Part shown: piece by piece, positions 162 through 52,067 of the stretch | Numbering within the stretch: the first letter of the stretch is position 1 | How the letters are laid out: each line of letters opens with the position of its first letter | Assembly (NCBI GenBank): GCA_048882045.1 | Contig: JBHLRZ010000002.1 | Coordinates: forward strand, 128,001-192,000 | DNA length: 64,000 bases | Source of the DNA: Candidatus Thorarchaeota archaeon | GTDB lineage: Archaea > Asgardarchaeota > Thorarchaeia > Thorarchaeales > Thorarchaeaceae | Reading direction: 5' to 3' | The notes under the pieces: model-generated | Told to the model about the DNA's origin: nothing | Seen by the model: only the letters and a program-made list of their open reading frames with translations | The model's database searches: none | Position numbers and translations under genes: made by a program

Positions 162-968
162 TTGATCATGAGTTCAATGAACATGAAGCTCAGTTTCGCT
201 GATGAAGTGAAACAAAAAGCATTGGAAGTAGGTTTTGTGTCAGTTGGCATCGCTGATGTACACGCACTCAAGGATCTTCCGTATGGTTGGGTCGGGGAAG
301 TACGCGAATTGTACAGACCCGAGAATGAACTCCCAGGTGCAAAATCTGTAATCATGCTGGCATTCAACACTTGGGATCGAGCGTACAGTCTAAATGTTGA
401 ATCGTCGAGCTGGACAAACAATGGGGTTCAGCATCAAGACTCTAGATACGCTCACGGCAGCCTGGGCTACGAGGTGATGAAGAACAAGGCTTGGACCATT
501 GTTGAGTTTCTAAATGAGAGAGGATTCAAAGCGAGATGGTCATTAGGAATTCCTCTGAAGACAACAGCTGTTCTATGTGGTTTGGGGGCTCAAGGAAAGA
601 ACTCGCTTCTGATTACACCTGAATTCGGACCAAGGGTATTCTTGATAGCTGTTCTGACCTCTGCTTCTCTGACACCAGACAGTCCCTTTGAGGATGATCT
701 ATGCAAGAACTGTGATAGATGCATCAAGGTATGTCCTACTAGAGCAATTGAATCCTACAACCCCAGAATTGAACACTGTATGGTGTATCATTTAGAATGT
801 CCCGATTCCACAAACGTTCCTGACCATGTGAAAGAGAAATCAAGACAGCTCATCAAACGACCAACATCAAACAGCTATATCGAGTGTACAAGATGTGTAG
901 ATGTCTGCCCCATCGGGAAGGGACACGAAAGCAGTACTCAATATTCTCCCTTTCTCAATCTTGCCTGA
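162..968 (+). CDS. Epoxyqueuosine reductase / reductive dehalogenase-like Fe-S protein
   Basis: LPGAKSVI, GLGAQGKNSLLITPEFGPRV, CxxCxxCxxxCP and C-terminal CxxCxxxCP motifs. Confidence 0.75.
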   Translation: MIMSSMNMKLSFADEVKQKALEVGFVSVGIADVHALKDLPYGWVGEVRELYRPENELPGAKSVIMLAFNTWDRAYSLNVESSSWTNNGVQHQDSRYAHGSLGYEVMKNKAWTIVEFLNERGFKARWSLGIPLKTTAVLCGLGAQGKNSLLITPEFGPRVFLIAVLTSASLTPDSPFEDDLCKNCDRCIKVCPTRAIESYNPRIEHCMVYHLECPDSTNVPDHVKEKSRQLIKRPTSNSYIECTRCVDVCPIGKGHESSTQYSPFLNLA

Positions 969-1070
969 AAATCACTGGTAAGGTTCCGAAGTAAAGGTGG
1001 GATTGAGTGGTCACAAGTTTTCCAAGCTCACATTCGGCTCATAGTTCTTAGATGAAACAACAACTTTAAA

Positions 1071-1104
1071 TGTAAAGTTTACTTTACGTAAAGTGAACTT
1101 TACA
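1071..1104. promoter_or_regulatory. Double palindromic operator, two tandem GTAAAG-N4-CTTTAC units
   Basis: TGTAAAGTTTACTTTACGTAAAGTGAACTTTACA is a 34-bp near-perfect palindrome between a TTTAAA box and the HTH gene start. Confidence 0.8.
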
Positions 1105-1111
1105 TCACAAA

Positions 1112-1363
1112 GTGAGTGTGACTGATGTGATTGTCAACAGAATCAAGGAGCTTCGAGAACTAGAGATGTCGAAGGCATCCAATCATGACGATTGGACTCA
1201 AGAAGGCCTAGCACGTCGTTTGGGTGTCACACGTCAGACTATAATCTCCATCGAAAAGGGTACTTACAATCCTTCCCTTCTGCTTGCGTTCAAACTTTCA
1301 CGCATCTTTGAGATGAAAATTGAAGATATGTTCCAGTACAGAGATGATAAAGATGCAAACTGA
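1112..1363 (+). CDS. Cro/C1 (XRE) HTH transcriptional regulator
   Basis: TQEGLARRLGVTRQTIISIEKGTYNPSLLLAFKLS. Confidence 0.92.
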   Translation: MSVTDVIVNRIKELRELEMSKASNHDDWTQEGLARRLGVTRQTIISIEKGTYNPSLLLAFKLSRIFEMKIEDMFQYRDDKDAN

Positions 1364-1649
1364 AATGGGTGAAACCTTTCTGATGTTCTATGTAACACTT
1401 GGACTTGTTCTTTTGATCAATGCAGTCATTTTGCTATACATCAAGAGAATCCAAGATGAGCGCTATCTACAGATCTTGGGTTTGGGAGGTCGAAACGCGT
1501 TCGTCTTTGTGATGATTATTTTGCCAATAATAAGTGCGTTGCAATTCATGGGTCTTCCTTGGATAGTTCCAGGATTCTCAGTCTTTGTATTATGGATATC
1601 CTCATTCTTTGCTCTCTATGGTTCAAGTTACTATTACTACAGGAGTTAG
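1353..1649 (+). CDS. Small membrane protein, DUF2178-like (start uncertain)
   Basis: Three TM segments, DER motif, C-terminal YYYR; follows the XRE gene. Confidence 0.7.
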   Translation: MQTEMGETFLMFYVTLGLVLLINAVILLYIKRIQDERYLQILGLGGRNAFVFVMIILPIISALQFMGLPWIVPGFSVFVLWISSFFALYGSSYYYYRS

Positions 1650-2036
1650 ATGAAACAAGGAGGAACAATGACAATGAATCGTAGTCTAAAGACAGCCCTG
1701 AGTATTGTAGCAACTGTAGCAATTGTTTTTGTGATACTTTGGATTCTAGGTTTGTACAATCTGAGTAGCTATGGTGGAGCCATCGGAGGTATGGTTGGTG
1801 GTGTTCTTGGAGCGAGCTATATGCGGCGTTTCTATGATGAGCGGTTCACACAGATCATGAATCTCGCTGCAAGGAACGCCTTTGTCTTTCTGGTGATCAT
1901 CCTCCCTCTGACTTCCATTGTTCTTGTTTCAGTTGAAGAAGTCACACTTCAAATCGCAGCAGGTCTTGTCGTTGTGCCGTGGATATCCTCGCTCATCATT
2001 CTCTACCTGTCGCTGTTCTATTACTATCGAAAATAG
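1650..2036 (+). CDS. Small membrane protein, DUF2178-like, paralog of the upstream gene
   Basis: DERFTQIMNLAARNAFVF and YYYRK mirror the upstream ORF. Confidence 0.72.
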   Translation: MKQGGTMTMNRSLKTALSIVATVAIVFVILWILGLYNLSSYGGAIGGMVGGVLGASYMRRFYDERFTQIMNLAARNAFVFLVIILPLTSIVLVSVEEVTLQIAAGLVVVPWISSLIILYLSLFYYYRK

Positions 2037-2044
2037 ACTCTGTT

Positions 2045-2070
2045 CGAATAAGAAAAATGGTAGCGGGTAG
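2045..2070 (-). repeat. tRNA-iMet 3'-end copy 1 (att-like), 26-bp direct repeat
   Basis: CGAATAAGAAAAATGGTAGCGGGTAG is identical to 2422-2447; core TGGTAGCGGGT equals the tRNA 3' end at 3162-3172. Confidence 0.88.
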
Positions 2071-2123
2071 CGAAACAAGAATAGCAAAATTCAACTCAGA
2101 TTCATCACGTATTTCCACCACCA

Positions 2124-2447
2124 ATGCAAATCTTTGATCCTGCAACTGGCATAGTTGCAATCCTCGCTGGAGTAATACTCTCCTCGCTCATTGGTGGATT
2201 GTGTCTTAGGTATGTCTACAGAAACTCAGACCATTTGTTTGTTGGTGTAATGATAATCATCTTGGGATCTTTTGGGGTCTTCTGTACTCTATTTGCATGG
2301 TCGTATATATTCTCACATGTAGATTCATTCCTCCCTATAGGAGCTAGAATGACAATCCTCGGATTGGTAGTTCTACTTCCAATAGCCATCGGATTTGTTA
2401 CTACATCGGGTTTCAATAGAACGAATAAGAAAAATGGTAGCGGGTAG
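2124..2447 (+). CDS. Hypothetical 3-TM membrane protein (cassette cargo)
   Basis: 107-aa hydrophobic ORF between the repeats; its stop codon lies inside repeat copy 2. Confidence 0.65.
   Translation: MQIFDPATGIVAILAGVILSSLIGGLCLRYVYRNSDHLFVGVMIIILGSFGVFCTLFAWSYIFSHVDSFLPIGARMTILGLVVLLPIAIGFVTTSGFNRTNKKNGSG
2422..2447 (-). repeat. tRNA-iMet 3'-end copy 2 (att-like)
   Basis: Exact copy of 2045-2070. Confidence 0.88.
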
Positions 2448-2600
2448 TTTGAAAGGCAAGCTTCTTGACTGCCTTAGTAAAGTAATGGTCTTGAAAGATT
2501 AATATGGTTAGAATTATCAGATGATACTAGGGCATGCAGGACTAAGGAATCTAGCAACAAATTTGATGTCTTTATACAGAATCGTGGAGGAGGATTATTC

Positions 2601-3113
2601 ATAGTTGAAGGCAAAGATGAGCAGCTAGAGAAAGAGCTCTATGACCCGATAATAGCAGTGCTCAGAGAACGCTTTAGTGAAAAAGGTAAGTGCATATTAG
2701 ACACAACCGATCGACTCTTACATACTGATAATAGGATAAATCTAGATAATGTGGCACTTCTGTCCCTTAGCGTTGAGAGAAAGTTCCCTGATCTGATAGG
2801 ATGTCTTGACATCAGTGAAACGATATTTTCAGAGGAAAGTAGACTGATTGTGGTAGAAATAAAGAGAGGAGTTTTGACTCTTGGGGATTTATACCAAGTA
2901 AAGATGTATGCTGAAGTACTTCAGGCTTACTACGCGATTCTGATATCTCCTAGTGGGTTTCAGAGAGAACAAAGAAAGGCCATTATCGAAATTCCCGAAC
3001 TACTCAACTTTTGTGCTCAGGAATATGATCGTCAGATTGTAGTGATGTATTGGAGAGAAAATACTCTTGAAATAGATGAGGAATTATATTATGAGGACCC
3101 ATTAGAAACTTAA
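2601..3113 (+). CDS. PD-(D/E)xK restriction-endonuclease-like protein (cassette cargo); start 2601 (ATA) or 2658 (GTG)
   Basis: EKELYDPI...FPDLIG...IVVEIK...DLYQVKMY motifs; GGAGGAGG at 2586-2593. Confidence 0.7.
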   Translation: MVEGKDEQLEKELYDPIIAVLRERFSEKGKCILDTTDRLLHTDNRINLDNVALLSLSVERKFPDLIGCLDISETIFSEESRLIVVEIKRGVLTLGDLYQVKMYAEVLQAYYAILISPSGFQREQRKAIIEIPELLNFCAQEYDRQIVVMYWRENTLEIDEELYYEDPLET

Positions 3114-3161
3114 TTCCTTATCAGTTGAGATAATGTAGAGGGGTGAAATGAAAAGAAGAAG

Positions 3162-3303
3162 TGGTAGCGGGTGGAGGATTTGAACCTCCGATCTCGGGGT
3201 TTCCGAAGCGGGAGCTCAAAGCGTCATCGCTTTATGAGCCCCGCGGGATAGGCTTCACCCACGTGCGGACGAATCCACACAGGACTGGCTTCCCCAACCC
3301 GCT
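3162..3303 (-). tRNA. tRNA-iMet(CAT) with a D-loop intron (~3254-3284) and a canonical 37/38 intron (3201-3232); CCA encoded
   Basis: After intron removal: AGCGGGT TG GGGA AGCCAGGCCTA TCCC G CGGGG CT CAT AA CCCCG AGATC GGAGG TTCAAAT CCTCC ACCCGCT A CCA; A1-U72 and consecutive G-C anticodon-stem pairs indicate initiator. Confidence 0.92.
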
Positions 3304-3350
3304 TTTATTTAACCGTTCGTTTGAACAAACACAGCGACCGAGTCTGACGA

Positions 3351-3362
3351 CCCCAACCCGCT
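3351..3362 (-). repeat. Upstream duplicate of the first 12 nt of tRNA-iMet
   Basis: AGCGGGTTGGGG (minus strand) at both 3351-3362 and 3292-3303. Confidence 0.85.
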
Positions 3363-3391
3363 ATGCTTGGACTGGGGTTTGCTAGAGGGAG

Positions 3392-3398
3392 TTTTAAA
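3392..3398 (-). promoter_or_regulatory. TATA box of the tRNA-iMet transcript
   Basis: TTTAAAA about 30 nt upstream of the duplicated 5' end. Confidence 0.55.
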
Positions 3399-3485
3399 GT
3401 TATTCGTAGGAATCTGAGAATCGAATATGTTATAGTCGCGGAATGTTATGATATTGGAAACACATAGGGCAAATGAGGTGTTTAC

Positions 3486-4421
3486 GTGAAGATTTCTGAG
3501 AGTGTCTTGGATGCGATTGGGAATACATCCTTAGTGCAATTGAAGAAGGTGGTTCCTGACAATCATGCAAGAGTATTAGTGAAATTGGAGTGGGAGAATC
3601 CAACGGGGAGCATGAAAGACCGGATGGCCCAGTCCATGATTGAAAAGGCGGAGGAAGATGGAAGATTAAGTGCTGGTGGTACTGTTGTAGAGTATACAGG
3701 AGGAAGCACGGGCACATCGCTGGCATTGATCTGTGCTATCAAAGGATATCGTTTCCAAGTTGTTTCCTCAGATGTATTCAGTCAAGACAAGCTAAACCAC
3801 ATGAAGGCATTGGGCGCAGAACTGACAATCGTCCCAAGTAGGGGACTTGGGATTAGGAGAGAATTAATCGAGGAGATGATAGAAACCGCTCAAAAACTGA
3901 GTGATTCTCCTGGTACCTACTGGACAGACCAACTGAACAACAAGGACAATGTGTCGGGCTATTTTCCGTTGGGTGAAGAGATTTGGGACCAGACAGGTGG
4001 TAAGGTCGATGCTTTTGTGCATGTGGCTGGGACAGCCGGATCTATCATCGGTACTTCAAGAGTATTGAAGGAGCACAACCCGCAGGTGAGAATTGTTGCT
4101 GTTGAACCTAACGAGTCCCCAGTTTTGTCGGGAGGTGAGAGTGGTTCACACGACATAGAAGGAATTGGGATTGGGTTCCTTCCACCCCTCTGGGATGGTA
4201 GCCTTGTCGATGAAGTCGTTCGCATTCCAACTGAAGAGGCTAAAGAGATGGCAAGATTACTAGCAAGAGAAGAGGGACTATGCGCAGGCACTTCATCAGG
4301 TGCAAATGTGGCTGCAGCCATAAAGGTTGCCAAAGAATTGGGTCCTAGCGCAACAGTAGTTACGCTGTTAGTCGATTCGGGTCTGAAGTACTTGAGTACA
4401 GATCTTTACAAATCCAGTTAA
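3486..4421 (+). CDS. cysK: Cysteine synthase family PLP enzyme
   Basis: KLEWENPTGSMKDR, GTAGS, GTSSGA. Confidence 0.88.
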   Translation: MKISESVLDAIGNTSLVQLKKVVPDNHARVLVKLEWENPTGSMKDRMAQSMIEKAEEDGRLSAGGTVVEYTGGSTGTSLALICAIKGYRFQVVSSDVFSQDKLNHMKALGAELTIVPSRGLGIRRELIEEMIETAQKLSDSPGTYWTDQLNNKDNVSGYFPLGEEIWDQTGGKVDAFVHVAGTAGSIIGTSRVLKEHNPQVRIVAVEPNESPVLSGGESGSHDIEGIGIGFLPPLWDGSLVDEVVRIPTEEAKEMARLLAREEGLCAGTSSGANVAAAIKVAKELGPSATVVTLLVDSGLKYLSTDLYKSS

Positions 4422-4455
4422 TTAGGTTCTGGGTCATCACAAGGGCTTCAGAGAG

Positions 4456-5082
4456 GTGTGTGAGGAAATGGGAGACTCAGAGATAATCAAGAAGTTTCGT
4501 CGAATACTTGAAGAATGTGAGGAAGAACATGTATTCAATGGCACAATTCTAGAGCTTGACACACCAATAGACTATGCACCATATCGTGTAAGAGGGATAT
4601 CTGTTGAAGCAGCTAGTGGACTTCACAAAGTCAGGTTTTCTAGAAACTTTCGAAATGATCTCGACATAGAGATAGCCCCACTGAACATTGAGGATGAAGT
4701 TGTGGTCTTTGGTCGTCAGAGCAAGCAGAAAGAGAATGAAACATCACCAATAATCATTCTTCTTCCCAAAGAGAGAACCATGATTCTTGCACGAGAGCGA
4801 GAACCAACAGGTTGGCAAGGAGGATGGTCCGAGTGGAGTGTTGTTGGATCTGCTGTGGTTGCTCTGGTTCTCAGCGCAGTAGGGATGTATATAGTGTATT
4901 TTGAAGAATCCAGTTCCTATACACCACTGGAATGGTTTGTGGGTGCATACTTCTTCTTCTTCCTCATGCTTGGACTTGAGTGGTACAACAAGTTCTCAAA
5001 GAGAGAACGAGTAATTCACTGTAATCCAAAGGATTGGGAAATCATCACTGAAGAGGTTTCAAGGAAATACAACATCATGTAG
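4456..5082 (+). CDS. Hypothetical protein, possible OB-like N-terminus plus two TM helices
   Basis: 208-aa ORF with two hydrophobic helices. Confidence 0.6.
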   Translation: MCEEMGDSEIIKKFRRILEECEEEHVFNGTILELDTPIDYAPYRVRGISVEAASGLHKVRFSRNFRNDLDIEIAPLNIEDEVVVFGRQSKQKENETSPIIILLPKERTMILAREREPTGWQGGWSEWSVVGSAVVALVLSAVGMYIVYFEESSSYTPLEWFVGAYFFFFLMLGLEWYNKFSKRERVIHCNPKDWEIITEEVSRKYNIM

Positions 5083-6274
5083 ATGACTTCACGTTCTTAG
5101 CAAACTCCATCCCGAAGTTGACGGCCTGTTCGAGTTCTTTAGCATCTGGAACCCACTTCACAGTGAAAGGCTCCATCACTATGTCCATTTTCCCCTTCTC
5201 CATGGACTCCTGAATCTTCTTCACAGCACCTCCGCCCCACCCATAGGAACCGAATGCAGCACACTTCTTGCCAACAGGTTTTAGCATCTCCAAATCAGAA
5301 AGCACCGATGCTACATTTGGCAGGATGTCATTGTGCATAGTAGAACTCCCAACGAGAATACCTCTTGCCTCCAATAGATCAGCCATGATGTCGTAGCGGT
5401 CACAGTGAGGGATGAGCTTCATAACAGGTTCCAATCCCTCACTTCGTATGCCTTCCGCGATGGCTCTTGCAATCTTTGTCGTGCTCTCCCACATCGTGTC
5501 CCAGGTGATGACCACCTTGTCTTGAAGCCTTTCGCCTTTGGCCCACTCAAGGTATCGGGTCACAATCTGAAGAGGATCTTTTCGCCATATCAGACCGTGA
5601 GATGGAGCTATCATCTTGATAGGGAGCCCCAACTCGACAACCTCCTCAATTTTCCTCTGGACCATTCTACTCAATGGCCAGAGGATGTTAGCATAGTATT
5701 TCTCAGCCTCTCGCCAAAGGACATTCTGTTCCACCTCGTCAGCAAACCTACTTTCAGTGGCATAATGTTGACCAAATGCATCATTTGGCAACAACAGCTC
5801 CTTCTCAACATAATATGTGAACATGGACTCAGGCCAGTGAAGCATTGGTGCCTCATAGAACCTGAGAGTCTTACCTCCCAAGTCTATCTCATCACCTGTC
5901 TTGACTGTTTGAATGTTCCATCCATCACCATAGTGTTTCTTGAGTTGATCAACAGCCTTTGAACTGCAGATGAGTTTGGCATCTGAAGCCATCTCAAGGA
6001 CCTTTGGAGTTGTTCCTGAATGGTCCATCTCTGTGTGATTCGATATCATATAGTCGATTTTCTGTATATCAATGACCTTGGATATTCTCGACAACATCTC
6101 GTCGGCAAACAGACCCATAACAGAATCAACCAGCGCGACTTTTTTCCCTACAATTAGATAGGAATTGTAGGTAGTCCCGTGGTGTGTTGTGTAGCTAAAA
6201 CCGTGGAAATTTCGAATGTTGTAATCTAAGGCGCCTACCCAGTATACATCCTTCATAATCTCAAATGGTTCCAA
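5075..6274 (-). CDS. fprA: Flavodiiron protein (FprA family)
   Basis: GTTYNSYL, NHTEMDHSG, PMLHWPES, DAFGQH, flavodoxin domain FGSYGWGG. Confidence 0.93.
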   Translation of the reverse strand: MEPFEIMKDVYWVGALDYNIRNFHGFSYTTHHGTTYNSYLIVGKKVALVDSVMGLFADEMLSRISKVIDIQKIDYMISNHTEMDHSGTTPKVLEMASDAKLICSSKAVDQLKKHYGDGWNIQTVKTGDEIDLGGKTLRFYEAPMLHWPESMFTYYVEKELLLPNDAFGQHYATESRFADEVEQNVLWREAEKYYANILWPLSRMVQRKIEEVVELGLPIKMIAPSHGLIWRKDPLQIVTRYLEWAKGERLQDKVVITWDTMWESTTKIARAIAEGIRSEGLEPVMKLIPHCDRYDIMADLLEARGILVGSSTMHNDILPNVASVLSDLEMLKPVGKKCAAFGSYGWGGGAVKKIQESMEKGKMDIVMEPFTVKWVPDAKELEQAVNFGMEFAKNVKSST

Positions 6275-45373: not shown

Positions 45374-45805
45374 TTGGAGCGCGGTTTCAACTATCACGAA
45401 CATACAGCCGACATCACAATAGAATGTTGGGCTCCTGACCTCATCGGGGCTTTTGAACAGGCAGCTCTGGCAACATTTGAGGTCATTCTTGACACCTCTA
45501 CTGTGAAACCTAGTGAAACCGTTGAAATCGAGATAACTGCGACAGACCTTGAGGAGCTATTGGTGGAATGGATCGGTGAGTTGATCGCACTGATTGACAT
45601 CAAGGGACAATTCTACTCCAAATTCTCAGTGGACCATATCGAAGCCACAACAAACGGCTACATACTGGAAGGTCGAGTTCTTGGTGAAACAATTGACCAC
45701 GACAAGCATGATACCCGAACAGAGGTCAAAGCCATGACGTATGCAGACTTGAGAATTCTTGAAGAACCAAATCGAACAATCTTATGGTTCACACTTGACC
45801 TTTAG
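45374..45805 (+). CDS. Archease
   Basis: EHTADI, EVKAMTY, LDL C-terminus. Confidence 0.93.
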   Translation: MERGFNYHEHTADITIECWAPDLIGAFEQAALATFEVILDTSTVKPSETVEIEITATDLEELLVEWIGELIALIDIKGQFYSKFSVDHIEATTNGYILEGRVLGETIDHDKHDTRTEVKAMTYADLRILEEPNRTILWFTLDL

Positions 45806-45817
45806 GAGGACTAAAAA

Positions 45818-46675
45818 TTGACGCTGAGAGTTGCCATTCCTGATACTACCCTGACAGACTGCTCTGACCTACGTCAGAAGACTGTGAAATCCGGATCGAT
45901 TGCCAGGGCTCTAGCCATATTTCGGGTCAATCATGTCTTTATCTATGAAACCGGGACCCTGACTGGTAATAAGACACGGGATGCAGATTTGCTGATGAAG
46001 CTGCTCAGGTTCATGGACACACCACAGTATCTTCGAAAAAAGATATTCCCGAAATCTCCATCTCTAAAGTATGCAGGCATCCTTCCGCCTCTTAGGACAA
46101 AGAGTCATCCATTAGAACAGATGAAGTCTGATCTACATGAGGGAGTCGTGAGATGGGGGGTACAGGTCAGGCCAGGAAAGGTCGACCTTGGTCTCGATAA
46201 GCTAATCGACTATCCCCAGACCATCAGCGAACGAGACCCCACATTGTTCCGTGTGAAGAAGGCTTCGCCCAAAATCATCCTAGAGATAATCGATCGCGAG
46301 GATGTTGAAGAGTACTGGGGTTTCTCTGTTGAAAGGATTCGAGAACTACGTCTTCTGCTTGAGGCGGAAGACGATTCCACCAGGATTGGGTTCTCAAGAA
46401 AAGCGCCTCACTTTAATAGACTTGAAACTGATCTGAAATCAACCATTGCGGGGACACAATCAGTTCTGGCTATCTTTGGTGGTCCCGGACATGGCATTCT
46501 CGAAGTCTTTGAAGAGGAACGTGAAACCATCAAGTCAAACATTGACTTCTGGGTTAATACAATCCCTCATCAGGGTACTGAAACTGTTCGCCTTGATGAG
46601 GCACTATTCGTGAGTCTTGGAGTATTGAACAGTTCTCTGGGGCAGATGATGACGAAACCAGGTTTTCATGATTGA
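45818..46675 (+). CDS. SPOUT RNA methyltransferase (COG2106/DUF171)
   Basis: IARALAIFRV, TPQYLRK, AGILPPL, NTIPHQGTETVR. Confidence 0.9.
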   Translation: MTLRVAIPDTTLTDCSDLRQKTVKSGSIARALAIFRVNHVFIYETGTLTGNKTRDADLLMKLLRFMDTPQYLRKKIFPKSPSLKYAGILPPLRTKSHPLEQMKSDLHEGVVRWGVQVRPGKVDLGLDKLIDYPQTISERDPTLFRVKKASPKIILEIIDREDVEEYWGFSVERIRELRLLLEAEDDSTRIGFSRKAPHFNRLETDLKSTIAGTQSVLAIFGGPGHGILEVFEEERETIKSNIDFWVNTIPHQGTETVRLDEALFVSLGVLNSSLGQMMTKPGFHD

Positions 46676-46738
46676 TACATACGTGACCTTTAAAGAAGAA
46701 ATTGCCATGGTTTTTACAATCGTTCATGAGGTTTCAAG

Positions 46739-49105
46739 ATGCAGTCTGATAGGGTCAGGCGATTACGCAAGCAGAGTGTGGGCACAAGACCCTACATTTC
46801 TACAGAGCGCGCTGAGCTACTGACAGATTTCTATCAGAGTGGGGGTGCGGACATGGTTTCTACACCTGTGGCTCGTGCTCTTGCATTCAAACACCTGTTG
46901 GAGAACAAGACAATCTGCATCAACGAAGGTGAACTCATTGTTGGAGAGAGAGGTCCTGCACCGAGAGCGTCACCCACCTATCCCGAGCTGTGTTGTCACA
47001 CCCTCGAAGACCTTGACATAGCAAACTCTCGTGAGAGAACACCATTTCTATTGAGTGAGGAAGCCAGGAATACATACCGCGACGAAATCATCCCGTATTG
47101 GACAGGCCGCACAATGCGTGAACGAGTATTCGAGGCTATGTCTGATGAGTGGATGGCAGCCTTCGATGCTGGTGTTTTCACGGAGTTCATGGAGCAACGA
47201 GCTCCTGGCCATGCCATCCTAGACGACAAGATATACCAAGGAGGTTTCTTGAATTTCATTGATGCTATCGAAGAACACATGTCCAGGCTCGATTTCTTCA
47301 ATGACTCCAAAGCCTATGACAAGGAACAAGAACTCATAGCCATGAAGATTTCAGCTGAAGCAGTGATAGACTTCGCTAAACGTCACGCTGAAATGGCGCA
47401 CGAGCTTGCAGCAGAGGAAAAGGACAAAGACAGGAAGGAGGAACTCCTCCGCATCGCTGATGTATGCAATCATGTACCAGCAAATGCACCACGTAACTTC
47501 TGGGAAGCTCTCCAATCCTATTGGTTTGTGCATCTGGGAGTCATTATCGAACTGAACGTCTGGGACAGTTTCAACCCTGGTAGGCTTGATCTAAACCTAA
47601 TTCCATTCTATGAGAAAGAGGTTGAGAATGGAACCCTCACCAGTGACTTTGCAAAGGAACTCCTACAATGTTTTTGGATCAAGTTCAACAATCAGCCAGC
47701 ACCATTGAAGGTATCAATCACTGAACAACAGAGTGGGACCTACCAGGACTTTGCCCTGATTAACACAGGGGGTCTTGACCAAGAAGGAAAAGATGCAGTC
47801 AATGAGTTGTCCTATCTCATTCTTGAAGTGTGCAACGAGATGCGGCTTATTCAGCCCAGTGTTTGCATTCAGCTGAGTACTAAGAATCCAGAGAGTTTCC
47901 TAGAGAGCGCTGTCGATGTAGTCAAAGAAGGCTTTGGGCAACCGTCGCTATTCAATACCGATGTGATCATCAAAGAGTTTGTCCGCGCTGGGAAATCCAT
48001 TGAGGATGCCCGTGCCGGAGGTCCCAGTGGTTGCGTCACAATAAGCGCATTTGGAAAAGAGAGCTGTATCCTGACTGGATATTGTAACTGGCCAAAGATA
48101 CTGGAGATTGCCCTGCATAATGGAATTGATCCACATACTGGAAAAAGGGTAGGTCCAGAAACTGGTAATCCAACCGAGTTCATGTCATTCGATGACATGC
48201 TTGATGCCTACAAGAAACAGCTCGAATATTTCATTGACCTAAAGATCAAGGGCAACAACATAATTGAACGACTCTATGCGGAGTATATGCCTGCACCCTT
48301 TATGTCACTCTTATTTGACGACTGTATCGCAAGAGGCAGAGATTACCATGACGGTGGTCCTCGATATAACTCCACATACATTCAGGGAGTTGGAATGGGT
48401 ACAATCTCAGACTCGCTATCTGCTATCAAGTATCATGTCTTTGAAAAGAAGCATTTCACAATGAAAGAGCTGCTTGAGGGTCTCCGGACCGATTTCAAGG
48501 ACAATGAGGTCATGAGAATGACTCTCCTCAAGAAGACGCCAAAATATGGCAATGACGACGATTTTGCAGACAAGCTAGCAAAAGATGTCTTTGACACATA
48601 CTTCGATCTCATCGACGGTCGTCCCAATACCAAGGGTGGCGAGTATCGTGTGAATCTACTCCCCACCACTGTACATGTATACTTTGGACAGATGACAGGA
48701 GCGACTCCGAATGGGAGGAATGCTGGGGCTCCCCTCTCCGATGGAATCTCTCCAAGTCACGGTGCAGACATTAATGGTCCAACTGCAGTCATCAAGTCTG
48801 TTGCTAAGATTGACCACTGGAAGACCGGAGGAACGTTGCTCAACCAGAAATTCATGCCTGAGGTCTTGGCTGATGTTGAAGGTCGAAAGAAACTTGGAGA
48901 TCTCGTAAGAACATACTTCAAATTGGGTGGACATCATATTCAGTTCAATGTAGTAAGGGCTGAAACATTACGAGATGCCCAGAAGAGCCCTGAACTTTTC
49001 CAAGATCTAATTGTGCGTGTGGCAGGGTATAGTGACTACTTTGTAAACATAGGAAAGGACCTGCAGAACGAGATTATTGCACGTACAGAGCAGCGAAGTA
49101 TCTGA
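46739..49105 (+). CDS. Glycyl radical enzyme, HypD (hydroxyproline dehydratase)-like
   Basis: FTEFMEQRAPGH, ELNVWDSFNPGRLD, KFNNQPAP, SGCVT, LPTT, RVAGYS. Confidence 0.88.
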   Translation: MQSDRVRRLRKQSVGTRPYISTERAELLTDFYQSGGADMVSTPVARALAFKHLLENKTICINEGELIVGERGPAPRASPTYPELCCHTLEDLDIANSRERTPFLLSEEARNTYRDEIIPYWTGRTMRERVFEAMSDEWMAAFDAGVFTEFMEQRAPGHAILDDKIYQGGFLNFIDAIEEHMSRLDFFNDSKAYDKEQELIAMKISAEAVIDFAKRHAEMAHELAAEEKDKDRKEELLRIADVCNHVPANAPRNFWEALQSYWFVHLGVIIELNVWDSFNPGRLDLNLIPFYEKEVENGTLTSDFAKELLQCFWIKFNNQPAPLKVSITEQQSGTYQDFALINTGGLDQEGKDAVNELSYLILEVCNEMRLIQPSVCIQLSTKNPESFLESAVDVVKEGFGQPSLFNTDVIIKEFVRAGKSIEDARAGGPSGCVTISAFGKESCILTGYCNWPKILEIALHNGIDPHTGKRVGPETGNPTEFMSFDDMLDAYKKQLEYFIDLKIKGNNIIERLYAEYMPAPFMSLLFDDCIARGRDYHDGGPRYNSTYIQGVGMGTISDSLSAIKYHVFEKKHFTMKELLEGLRTDFKDNEVMRMTLLKKTPKYGNDDDFADKLAKDVFDTYFDLIDGRPNTKGGEYRVNLLPTTVHVYFGQMTGATPNGRNAGAPLSDGISPSHGADINGPTAVIKSVAKIDHWKTGGTLLNQKFMPEVLADVEGRKKLGDLVRTYFKLGGHHIQFNVVRAETLRDAQKSPELFQDLIVRVAGYSDYFVNIGKDLQNEIIARTEQRSI

Positions 49106-49248
49106 ACAGGCTAACTTGGTCAGTAGGCAAATCTTAAAAACACACTTCGACTCGGCTCGCGGTGTAGTACGAATAGCCTAGTGGTGTATCTATTCGATTA
49201 CATGTTGATTTCATACCACGAAGGCTGCAAAACTACAGGTGACAGAAA

Positions 49249-50256
49249 ATGGCACATAGGAAGAAGAATGCTCCTAGACGAGGTAGTCTTGCTTACTTAC
49301 CACGAGGAAGAGCATCGAAATTCGTACCAAGAATCAAGAATTGGCCTTCTTATGATGGTAGTTCTCCCAAACTACTTGGTTTCGTCGGCTATAAGGCCGG
49401 AATGACCCATGCAGTGATGACTATTGAGAATCCAAATAGTCCATTCAAAGGTCAGGAAACTGTAGTTCCAGTCACAGTCATCGACACTCCACCGATTCGA
49501 CCATTCTCTATCCGAGGATATGAGGCAACTAGCTATGGTCTGAAACTGGTCACAGAGGTGCTCGCTGAAACCTTAGCTGAGGACCTCCGAAAGGCAATGC
49601 CTTTTCCAAAAGAATACGACCATGGAGCAAAGATGAAGGAGTTCGAGGAGAAGCTGGACTCACTTGCAGAGATCCGGATGCTTATCCACACTCAACCCCG
49701 ACTTGCGGGAGTACCAAAGAAGAAGCCTGACATTACTGAGTACAAAGTAGGCGCCTCTAGTGTTGCCGAAGCTTTTGAGTATGCTAAGAACATCCTTGGC
49801 ACAGACATTCGTGTTGCAGACGTCATAGATGAAGGAATCCTGGTTGACAGCATCGCAGTCACCAAAGGTCACGGATTCCAAGGTCCTGTAAGACGATGGG
49901 GAATTCGTATTCTCCAACACAAATCCCGAAAAACAAAGAGAGGTGTGGGTTGTATCGGTCCATGGACTCCTACAAACATCAGATACTCTGTCCCTAGACC
50001 TGGACAGACTGGATTCCATACTCGAACAAGCTTCAACAACAAGGTCATGAAAATGGGAGAGCGTGGTGAGGAAATCACACCCTCTGGAGGTTTTGTGAAC
50101 TACGGCGTGATACGTGGCGACTACATAATGCTTCATGGATCTGTCCCTGGTACAGTAAAGAGACCAGTGCGAATCAGATTTGCAATCCGTCCTAGTAAGG
50201 GACACGTGGATGCACCACCCCAGGTGAGTTACATCAGCACGTCTTCAAAGCAGTAG
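49249..50256 (+). CDS. rpl3: 50S ribosomal protein L3
   Basis: PRRGSLAYLPR, GYKAGMTH, TKGHGFQGPV. Confidence 0.97.
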   Translation: MAHRKKNAPRRGSLAYLPRGRASKFVPRIKNWPSYDGSSPKLLGFVGYKAGMTHAVMTIENPNSPFKGQETVVPVTVIDTPPIRPFSIRGYEATSYGLKLVTEVLAETLAEDLRKAMPFPKEYDHGAKMKEFEEKLDSLAEIRMLIHTQPRLAGVPKKKPDITEYKVGASSVAEAFEYAKNILGTDIRVADVIDEGILVDSIAVTKGHGFQGPVRRWGIRILQHKSRKTKRGVGCIGPWTPTNIRYSVPRPGQTGFHTRTSFNNKVMKMGERGEEITPSGGFVNYGVIRGDYIMLHGSVPGTVKRPVRIRFAIRPSKGHVDAPPQVSYISTSSKQ

Positions 50257-50270
50257 GGAGTTGAATATAC

Positions 50271-51062
50271 ATGACAGTTGTGAAAGCATTTACATTGAAG
50301 GGCAAGACAATCAAGGAGAGAGTTACACTCCCTGCCCATTTTGATACTCCCTATCGTCCAGATGTCATTAAGAGGGCAGTACTGGCGATCCAGTCACGCA
50401 GACGTCAACCACATGGTGTAGACGAGTTGGCTGGAAAACGCAACACTGCACAGAGCTGGCAGACTGGACATGGCAGATCACGAATGCCCCGAGTGAAAGG
50501 AAGTGGTACAAGCGCAGCAAACAAGGCTGCTTTTGCACCAGGAACAGTAGGTGGTCGTCAAGCCCATCCTCCTGAAGCACGCAAGGTACTCATTGAACGC
50601 ATAAACACGAAGGAAAACCGACTTGCAATTCGTTCTGCGATAGCAGCATCTGCAAACCCAGAATTTGTCAAGGCAAGAGGTCACAAGATAGACAATGTCC
50701 CACAGATCCCAATGGTCGTGAGTGACAAGTTGGAGTCTGTGACTACGACAAAAGAGGTCTTTGAAACCCTCATACTCCTCGGTTTAGGAGATGATCTTGA
50801 CAGGGCCAATAACGGTCGTAACGTCAGGGCTGGCAAAGGCAAGATGCGCGGTCGGAAGATGAAGACTCCCAAATCACTGCTGATTGTAGTTGGCTCCGAC
50901 TCGGGGGTTAGTAAAGCCGCTCGCAATCTTCCTGGAGTCGACATCACAGAAGTTCACAGTCTGAATGCTGAGCTTCTGGCTCCTGGAACACATCCTGGTC
51001 GCCTGGTGGTCTGGACAAGGTCCGCCATCAGCAGGCTGGAGAAGGAGAACCTGTTTGTCTGA
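50271..51062 (+). CDS. rpl4: 50S ribosomal protein L4
   Basis: RPDVIKRA, GGRQAHPP, RAGKGKMRGR, LAPGTHPGRL. Confidence 0.97.
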   Translation: MTVVKAFTLKGKTIKERVTLPAHFDTPYRPDVIKRAVLAIQSRRRQPHGVDELAGKRNTAQSWQTGHGRSRMPRVKGSGTSAANKAAFAPGTVGGRQAHPPEARKVLIERINTKENRLAIRSAIAASANPEFVKARGHKIDNVPQIPMVVSDKLESVTTTKEVFETLILLGLGDDLDRANNGRNVRAGKGKMRGRKMKTPKSLLIVVGSDSGVSKAARNLPGVDITEVHSLNAELLAPGTHPGRLVVWTRSAISRLEKENLFV

Positions 51063-51071
51063 GGTGAGGAA

Positions 51072-51335
51072 ATGAGAGATCCGAATGAAATCATTATCAG
51101 ACCTGTCGTGACGGAAGCTAGTCTTGAGGCTGTGGATGAGGAGAACAAGCTAATCTTCTATGTGGTCCGAACAGCGAACAAGAACACGATCAAATGGGCG
51201 GTCGAAACACTATACGAAGTCGTTGTTGAGAAAGTCAACACTCTGATAATGCCTGATGGAAAGAAGAAAGCATTAGTCAGACTAGCACCGGAGTACAGTG
51301 CCGCAGAGGTTGCGACAAACCTCGGGATATTCTAA
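51072..51335 (+). CDS. rpl23: 50S ribosomal protein L23
   Basis: PVVTE, KVNTLI, KKALVRL. Confidence 0.96.
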   Translation: MRDPNEIIIRPVVTEASLEAVDEENKLIFYVVRTANKNTIKWAVETLYEVVVEKVNTLIMPDGKKKALVRLAPEYSAAEVATNLGIF

Positions 51336-51347
51336 GGAGGTCTTTGA

Positions 51348-52067
51348 ATGGGTAGAAGAATTCTGGTCCAGCGTAAAGGTCGTGGGACAACTCAGTGGAG
51401 GTCTCCACGCCACAAGAAGATAGCTCCAGCAAGGCATCCCAAATGGGCACCAAATAAGACCTACGTGGGCACAATCATTAACCTGCACCATGAATCAGGC
51501 AGAGGTGCTCCTCTTGCAGAGGTACGTTACGAAGGTGAATCAAAAATCCACTTTATGGTGGCACCCGAGGGAGCTCAGGTCGGTCAGATAATCGAGTGTG
51601 GTGAAGATGCTTCACTTGCAAACGGCAACACTCTGATACTCGAGCACATTCCTGAAGGAACCCCTGTCTACAACATCGAGGGAAGTCCTGGTGACGGAGG
51701 TAAATATGTGAAATCATCTGGACTTGCAGCGACAATCGTGTCCATTGACAAGACTAAGGCAATGGTACGTCTACCAAGCGGCAGACAGAAGGCTTTCAGT
51801 CCACGCTGTCGAGCCACAATAGGTATCGTAGCTGGTGGTGGTCGGCAGGAGAAGCCATTCTTAAAGGCTGGTGCAGTCTGGCACCACACCCGTGGAAAGG
51901 CGCGAAAGTGGCCTGTTGTCCGAGGTGCTGCTATGAATGCTGCATCACATCCACATGGTGGTGGTTCTCACCAATCACCTGGCAGACCAAGCACTGTCAG
52001 TAGACATGCTCCGCCCGGTCGTAAGGTGGGTAATATTGCAGCTAGGCGTACTGGTCGCAAGAAGTAG
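51348..52067 (+). CDS. rpl2: 50S ribosomal protein L2
   Basis: QRKGRG, WPVVRGAAMN..HPHGGG, IAARRTG. Confidence 0.97.
   Translation: MGRRILVQRKGRGTTQWRSPRHKKIAPARHPKWAPNKTYVGTIINLHHESGRGAPLAEVRYEGESKIHFMVAPEGAQVGQIIECGEDASLANGNTLILEHIPEGTPVYNIEGSPGDGGKYVKSSGLAATIVSIDKTKAMVRLPSGRQKAFSPRCRATIGIVAGGGRQEKPFLKAGAVWHHTRGKARKWPVVRGAAMNAASHPHGGGSHQSPGRPSTVSRHAPPGRKVGNIAARRTGRKK

Follow-up and report, generated by a model that had tools for sequence, protein, structure and literature searches.

A thorarchaeal glycyl radical enzyme of the HypD family with threonine in place of the active-site glutamate

A 64,000-nucleotide stretch of DNA from Candidatus Thorarchaeota archaeon (GenBank assembly GCA_048882045.1, contig JBHLRZ010000002.1, positions 128,001 to 192,000; hereafter the window) encodes a glycyl radical enzyme (GRE) of the trans-4-hydroxy-L-proline dehydratase (HypD) family in which the Cys-Val-Glu (CVE) motif of the active site reads Cys-Val-Thr (CVT). 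The gene belongs to the HypD family by descent, the rest of its pocket is conserved, the threonine extends through an entire clade of archaeal relatives and, within that clade, glutamate has been regained. The enzyme is best explained, with a probability of roughly 0.55, as an active hydroxyproline-type dehydratase in which the hydrogen-bond network around the leaving group would have been rewired. An initial annotation, made from the sequence, had described a HypD-like GRE lacking the catalytic Glu and had proposed a new chemotype with a different mechanism. The description holds, while the conservation of the pocket, the Glu reversions and the positioning role of Glu in HypD favour the same reaction over the proposed chemotype.

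In Clostridioides difficile HypD, the leaving 4-hydroxyl donates a hydrogen bond to Glu436 (2.7 Å), which also pairs with His160 (2.5 Å); Glu436 and His160 are proposed to position the hydroxyl, with Asp278 serving as both base and acid (PMC7077986). The variants H160Q, D278N, D339N, S334A and F340A are all inactive (PMC7077986). PFL-like GREs of known function are all bacterial and none is archaeal, according to a 2026 review (PMC13450708), and a 2018 survey (PMC6219649), in which archaeal HypDs form their own clade, does not mention the motif. Full-text literature searches returned no paper in which HypD or hydroxyproline GREs are connected with Asgard archaea, and we found none describing the Asgard CVT clade or Asgard HypD-family genes without proC.

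HypD-family genes are common in Asgard archaea: the cut-off of NF043068, the curated equivalog model of HypD in NCBIfam (1100 bits), is exceeded in 174 of 400 genomes. Public pipelines call the CVT proteins HypD without flagging the missing Glu. A clade fixed for Thr implies either that Glu is dispensable or that slightly different chemistry is carried out and, together with two Glu reversions, it constitutes a natural mutagenesis series that tests the Glu-His pair in hydroxyproline dehydration. Activity of the window enzyme on hydroxyproline would mean that the Glu can be dispensed with and that the mechanism has to be refined; inactivity would mean that a new GRE activity awaits.

Family membership and the Cys-Val-Thr loop

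The translated product contains a PFL-like domain (PF02901, 778.9 bits) and a Gly_radical domain (PF01228, 125.9 bits) by Pfam. It scores 1243.7 bits against NF043068 (glycl_HYPD), with all other GRE models far below. HMMER aligns it colinearly, end to end, with C. difficile HypD (6vxc), and an AlphaFold2 (AF2) model of mean pLDDT 93 superposes on 6vxc_A with a TM-score of 0.98 and a root-mean-square deviation of 1.2 Å at 54% identity; GRE structures overall give TM-scores of 0.9-0.98 to the model. The sole stretch of low confidence (pLDDT about 58-65) comprises residues 321-340 (47699-47758), which carry Q331, S332, Q336, D337 and F338 and whose counterpart in HypD, a short helix, binds the carboxylate of the substrate.

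The features that define the GRE superfamily, namely the barrel and glycine radical domains, the RVAG763Y loop and C432, are all present, and both the equivalog score and the position of the protein inside the HypD clade of the tree are those of a HypD. The departure lies in the CXE motif that contains Glu436 in HypD. Here it reads C432-V433-T434, with Thr at the Glu position by which the GRE 1,2-eliminases (GD, PD, HpfG, HypD, HpyG, HpzG, CutC, IslA/IseG and HpsG) are also defined. The window GRE is a HypD ortholog, passed on by vertical descent and subject to strong purifying selection.

The surroundings of the motif are GPSG-C432-V433-T434-ISAFG, and the codons TGC GTC ACA at 48032-48040, like the intact RVAG763Y loop of the 788-residue translation, bear out what the initial annotation had read. 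Contigs assembled from four public runs of two studies (span 47700-48400) show zero differences at 48032-48040, although the DNA itself may stem from three of these runs. The closest 121 database proteins (NCBI, JGI, ENA and Logan; 77-94% identity over the searched region) comprise 118 with SGCVT and three with SGCVE. The named relatives come from Thorarchaeota/Promethearchaeota metagenome-assembled genomes (MAGs), and sediment metagenomes contain DNA near-identical to the window. CVT is likewise found in species-representative genomes of the window's own family in the GTDB taxonomy (f1) and of two others (f14 and f32). There is virtually no chance, in view of these agreements, that the motif stems from faulty sequencing or assembly or from a mutation confined to this MAG, either of which would have refuted the initial proposal; nothing was found to favour such an origin.

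Among the species-representative genomes the threonine is encoded by ACA, ACG, ACC and ACT. The use of all four codons points to purifying selection on the amino acid itself. Since Thr is encoded by ACN and Glu at the equivalent positions by GAA or GAG, a switch between the two in either direction requires two nucleotide changes.

A single CVT clade in which glutamate has been regained

Whether CVT defines a clade had been posed as a check on the annotation, and the answer is that it does. In a FastTree phylogeny of 185 sequences, with local supports only, all CVT sequences fall into one clade (support 0.92; more than 120 sequences from three GTDB families) that is sister to an Asgard CVE clade, the HypDs of Bacillota lying outside both. 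The bacterial comparison set was narrow (Sedimentibacter-like sequences) and was supplemented by the C. difficile alignment. The monophyly of the CVT clade and its sister relationship to CVE HypDs point to an origin from a HypD by a single Glu-to-Thr event. The stem branch of the CVT clade measures 0.137 and that of its sister 0.090. The combination GCVT, RAPGHAI and QSGTYQDF occurs in f1, f14 and f32, and the combination GCVE, RAPGHTV and ES(N/S/A)TYTDF, which resembles bacterial HypD, in the Asgard families f4, f8, f11, f13, f21 and f22. Within the window's family, an ortholog is found in 56 of 86 genomes and 11 of 16 genera. Clustering at 50% places the whole HypD family in one cluster and does not separate CVT from CVE at that level.

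Glu has been regained twice, in both cases deeply nested within the CVT clade: once in genome G319 (locus L054) and once in a lineage comprising P0096, P0098, P0106 and L057, which is represented in ENA, JGI, NCBI and Logan assemblies. The L057 gene belongs to the window's genus and occupies the same syntenic locus. The revertants keep every other signature of the clade, including A159, I160, Q331 and Q336, which indicates that Thr and Glu are both viable in this background. We considered whether the revertants might carry small recombinant patches from CVE genes; this was ruled out by their clade-type flanks (GPSGCVEISAFG) and by the other signatures that they keep. The G319 revertant (L054:7148-9898) lies outside the ribosomal-operon synteny described below, with an S33 aminopeptidase-like hydrolase next to it and an activase some 1 kb away; the longest open reading frame of this copy has an N-terminal extension of about 130 residues, which may simply reflect a mis-called start.

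Residues were mapped onto C. difficile HypD by HMMER alignment to 6vxc and by direct look-ups, the window number being the HypD number minus 2 in this region. H158 corresponds to His160, D276 to Asp278, S332 to Ser334, D337 to Asp339, F338 to Phe340, C432 to Cys434, Y448 to Tyr450, T643 to Thr645 and G763 to Gly765, and T434 and Q331 take the places of Glu436 and Glu333. The mapping upholds the earlier statement that the remaining HypD residues (His, Asp, Ser/Asp/Phe, Tyr and Thr) are kept and that ES has become QS. The residues named in the HypD structure paper (PMC7077986) as substrate-contacting or catalytic include 14 (F152, R156, H160, W277, D278, K326, S334, D339, F340, C434, V435, Y450, T645 and G765, in HypD numbering) that are essentially invariant across 127 CVT-clade and 146 CVE sequences, with one Y450C; experiments have shown six of them to be indispensable in the C. 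difficile enzyme (PMC7077986).

A further 14 positions are conserved within each group yet differ between the CVT and CVE groups. Half of these lie beside pocket residues (T161A, V162I, E333Q, T338Q, E436T, G438S and Y445C), and in the printed alignment most of the seven also hold against C. difficile HypD. T161A, V162I, E333Q and T338Q are found in 126-127 of the 127 CVT-clade sequences, a stricter conservation than that of T434 itself (122 of 127), while G438S and Y445C each occur in 122. At the level of sequence, then, no change has touched the radical relay, the proposed acid/base or the residues that bind the substrate through its carboxylate, amine and ring; only the partner of the leaving hydroxyl and its immediate neighbours are altered.

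On the reading that we prefer, the thorarchaeal HypD ortholog would yield pyrroline-5-carboxylate (P5C) by removing the 4-hydroxyl from hydroxyproline or a closely similar isomer. The single activase of the genome (contig C16) would install the radical on G763, from which it would pass to C432, and C432 would abstract hydrogen from C5. D276 would deprotonate the amine and protonate the leaving hydroxyl, with S332, Y448 and T643 holding the carboxylate and F338 stacking on the ring. At the leaving hydroxyl, the Glu-His pair would give way to a neutral network in which T434 and H158 would probably be joined by Q331, Q336 or both, possibly by way of a water molecule. In a genome without proC, the product would presumably be directed to glutamate or ornithine and not to proline through ProC. 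The substrate, the activity and the residue that takes over the role of Glu are all predicted from sequence.

Departures from CXE may also exist elsewhere in the superfamily. Among related GRE clusters (P0128-P0271; about 140 full-length representatives, 33-42% identical), a MAFFT alignment places about a quarter without the CXE Glu, with examples reading CVR, CVN, CTS, CTQ and CVG; these are alignment-based calls that need checking. The sole non-HypD cluster aligned as CVT was P0147, and a motif look at its members P0401 and P0403 did not recover the GCVT loop, so that the non-Glu calls in these clusters rest on the alignment.

Genomic setting, activating enzyme and proC

The features of the locus are collected in Table 1. 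The order archease, methyltransferase, GRE, L3, L4, L2 is found at 12 of the 15 loci of the window's family, in several genera and as read from species-representative genomes; the observation refers to window positions 45374-52067 and to loci L043-L053, L056 and L057. For a catabolic radical enzyme, the edge of a ribosomal operon is an unexpected, yet stable, location. As initially annotated, neither an activase nor a P5C reductase adjoins the gene. A dedicated activase and often proC make up the usual surroundings of HypD, a context that is typical of the family without defining it and that is not seen at the window GRE.

Table 1. Features of the HypD-family locus, in window coordinates (residues in window numbering; HypD equivalents in brackets)
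Feature	Position	Strand	Evidence or remark
Archease (45374-45805) and putative RNA methyltransferase (45818-46675), conserved upstream neighbours	45374..46675	+	Pfam
Possible own expression signals of the GRE gene: TTTAAA (46689-46694), ~45 nt before ATG; GAGGT (46728-46732), 6 nt before ATG	46689..46732	+	Sequence reading
HypD-family glycyl radical enzyme (P0001), 788 aa	46739..49105	+	Open frame translated; Pfam, NCBIfam NF043068, AF2 model
H158 (His160, kept), then clade-specific A159 and I160 (Thr161, Val162)	47210..47218	+	RAPGHAI in all CVT-clade sequences, RAPGHTV in CVE
D276 (Asp278, proposed HypD acid/base), kept	47564..47566	+	Residue look-up; PMC7077986
Active-site segment Q331-S332-G-T-Y-Q336-D337-F338; S332, D337 and F338 kept, E333Q and T338Q (HypD numbering) clade-specific	47729..47752	+	Residue look-ups, clade alignment
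Cys loop C432-V433-T434 (TGC GTC ACA), Thr in place of HypD Glu436	48032..48040	+	Translation, residue look-ups
C443 (Tyr445; clade-specific) through Y448 (Tyr450, kept)	48065..48082	+	Residue look-ups, clade alignment
T643 (Thr645, carboxylate ligand), kept	48665..48667	+	Residue look-up, clade conservation
Glycyl radical loop R760-V-A-G763-Y764	49016..49030	+	G763 invariant in CVT clade
Archaeal ribosomal proteins L3, L4, L2 (start of r-protein operon), conserved downstream neighbours	49249..52067	+	Profile matches, synteny

The search for a radical-SAM activase, which the annotation had recommended, was successful elsewhere in the genome. The assembly (3.63 Mb in 93 contigs, 93% complete) holds four PFL2-type GREs and one activase above the cut-off (TIGR02494, 318 bits; G000:C16:23135-23998, on the minus strand of locus L012 at 524-1492), which adjoins a GRE on contig C16 and is not adjacent to the window GRE, although it presumably serves it. 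The three paralogous GREs are 35-39% identical to the window GRE and have the loops GCVE (G000:C3:49115-51415, L010), GCVE (G000:C39:23812-26148, L011) and GCLE (G000:C16:24025-25800, L012). Because the paralogs keep Glu, its loss is specific to the HypD-like gene in this genome. The GRE on C3 is flanked by a pyridoxal phosphate-dependent (PLP) aminotransferase and a KDG-kinase-like gene, and that on C39 by a LarE-like gene.

Among the canonical (CVE) Asgard HypD loci that were fetched, 31 of 41 have an activase next door. Within the CVT clade, the gene at L073 (genome G397, family f32) overlaps an activase in an apparent operon, and in G319 the HypD-like gene has, about 1 kb away, the ortholog of the activase of the window genome (62% identity), which supports the view that the single thorarchaeal activase can serve the window GRE. 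The L073 segment (484-6265) runs activase, GRE and a gene resembling DapB/2,4-diaminopentanoate dehydrogenase, with a divergent MFS transporter. The DapB-like product could be a stand-in for P5C (cyclic-imine) reductase or a link to aminoketopentanoate metabolism. As a clue to the pathway it was dropped, being adjacent only at L073 among the fetched loci and present in the window genome only at a contig edge.

Two models failed to find proC in the window genome (93% complete), and none of the family's 85 other genomes yielded it either. The gene is likewise absent from the Asgard families f8 and f13, whose HypDs have CVE, and also from f14. Its absence from CVE families means that it says nothing about Thr, and proC was set aside as a discriminator between CVT and CVE. 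Given the C16 activase and the absence of proC alongside CVE, the missing neighbours are no argument for novelty. The window genome also has two OCD/mu-crystallin genes, one generic aldehyde dehydrogenase and a marginal, partial match (27 bits) to proline racemase/hydroxyproline epimerase.

Alternative readings and comparison with known systems

A Thr side chain can both donate and accept a hydrogen bond. Retained dehydration is favoured by this property, by the role of Glu in HypD, which is to position the hydroxyl rather than to act as a base, and by the exchange of Glu for Thr and of Thr for Glu within one genetic background; conservation of the 14 other pocket residues favours an unchanged overall reaction, with hydroxyproline or a near analogue as substrate. 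Weighing against this, E436Q of C. difficile HypD is inactive (PMC7077986), and all characterised GRE eliminases acting on C-O, C-N or C-S bonds, together with the isomerases, keep CXE with the Glu bonded to substrate (PMC13450708). No hydroxyproline-pathway genes linked to the window GRE were found in this genome. Moreover, seven of the 14 clade-defining substitutions fall within 5 residues of pocket residues, a modest enrichment (Fisher p 0.03-0.05) under the fairer null that admits only positions conserved in all groups, and one that could equally mean retuned specificity; the naive test (p=2e-4) was set aside.

These points can also be taken to mean that the CVT clade has been neofunctionalised, which we regard as a serious rival, though less probable than retained dehydration. 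The enzyme would then act on another proline-like substrate, such as a stereo- or regio-isomer of hydroxyproline, an N- or O-modified hydroxyproline or a ring homologue, or would eliminate by another route. With two carboxylates gone (E436T and E333Q) and two carboxamides acquired (Q331 and Q336), the pocket around the C4 substituent would have been reshaped. The fixed co-changes beside catalytic residues (T161A, V162I, E333Q and T338Q; G438S and Y445C) speak for such a shift, as do the weak enrichment of clade-defining changes near the pocket, the dead E436Q variant and the universality of CXE among characterised eliminases and isomerases. There are precedents in HpyG, HpzG and HplG, HypD relatives with altered hydroxyproline specificity, and the main family has lost the dedicated HypD-type activase and relocated the gene. 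These precedents, however, are just 33-35% identical to the window GRE, compared with 54% for HypD, and have kept Glu. The carboxylate, amine and ring binders are all unchanged, Glu was regained twice with no change in the other signatures, the CVT stem branch is not much longer than that of the sister clade, and no linked gene in the window genome hints at another substrate. It is a tentative proposal that the CVT clade (Thorarchaeia plus two further Asgard families) might be the first GRE "eliminase" lineage to dispense with the CXE Glu by way of a new substrate or elimination route, as an archaea-specific chemotype that public annotation as trans-4-hydroxy-L-proline dehydratase would conceal. 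Far less probable still is a relic, impaired in catalysis or no longer an enzyme at all, that is decaying or has been retained for some other role. A residue essential in the model enzyme is indeed missing and no dedicated activase lies nearby, but the frames are intact, more than 120 sequences from three GTDB families share the 14 pocket residues, the Cys and the Gly loop, and Thr persists through synonymous codon turnover. Synteny is conserved as well, the genome carries an activase, and the gene is present in most genomes of the family (56 of 86).

Set beside known systems, the window GRE stands closest to C. difficile HypD (6VXC/6VXE). The two proteins are colinear over their full length and share the fold, the Gly loop and the catalytic Cys, and His160, Asp278, Ser334, Asp339, Phe340, Tyr450, Thr645, Phe152, Trp277, Arg156 and Lys326 are all kept. 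The window GRE differs by Glu436Thr, Thr161Ala, Val162Ile, Glu333Gln, Thr338Gln, Thr437Ile, Gly438Ser and Tyr445Cys, by a gene with no adjacent activase or proC, by its archaeal host and by an activity that is predicted only. The Asgard CVE HypDs (for example L013-L042 and L063-L072) form the sister clade within the same phylum and have the same length and the same 14 pocket residues. In contrast to the window GRE, they carry GCVE, RAPGHTV and ES(N/S/A)TYTDF and usually have an adjacent activase, whereas the gene of the window's family adjoins the ribosomal operon.

HpyG, HpzG and HplG, which are GREs for hydroxyproline derivatives, have the same fold (TM-scores of 0.95-0.97) and illustrate that the scaffold can be retuned to other hydroxyproline isomers; unlike the window GRE, they hydrogen-bond the substrate hydroxyl through a retained CXE Glu (PMC13450708). 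B12-independent glycerol dehydratase (1R8W), PD, CutC and IslA belong to the same superfamily, with the same fold and Cys/Gly radical relay. In these CXE 1,2-eliminases, Glu acts as the catalytic base in forming a ketyl radical; the window GRE lacks this residue, and its pocket is HypD-like, unlike the diol, choline or sulfonate pockets of those enzymes.

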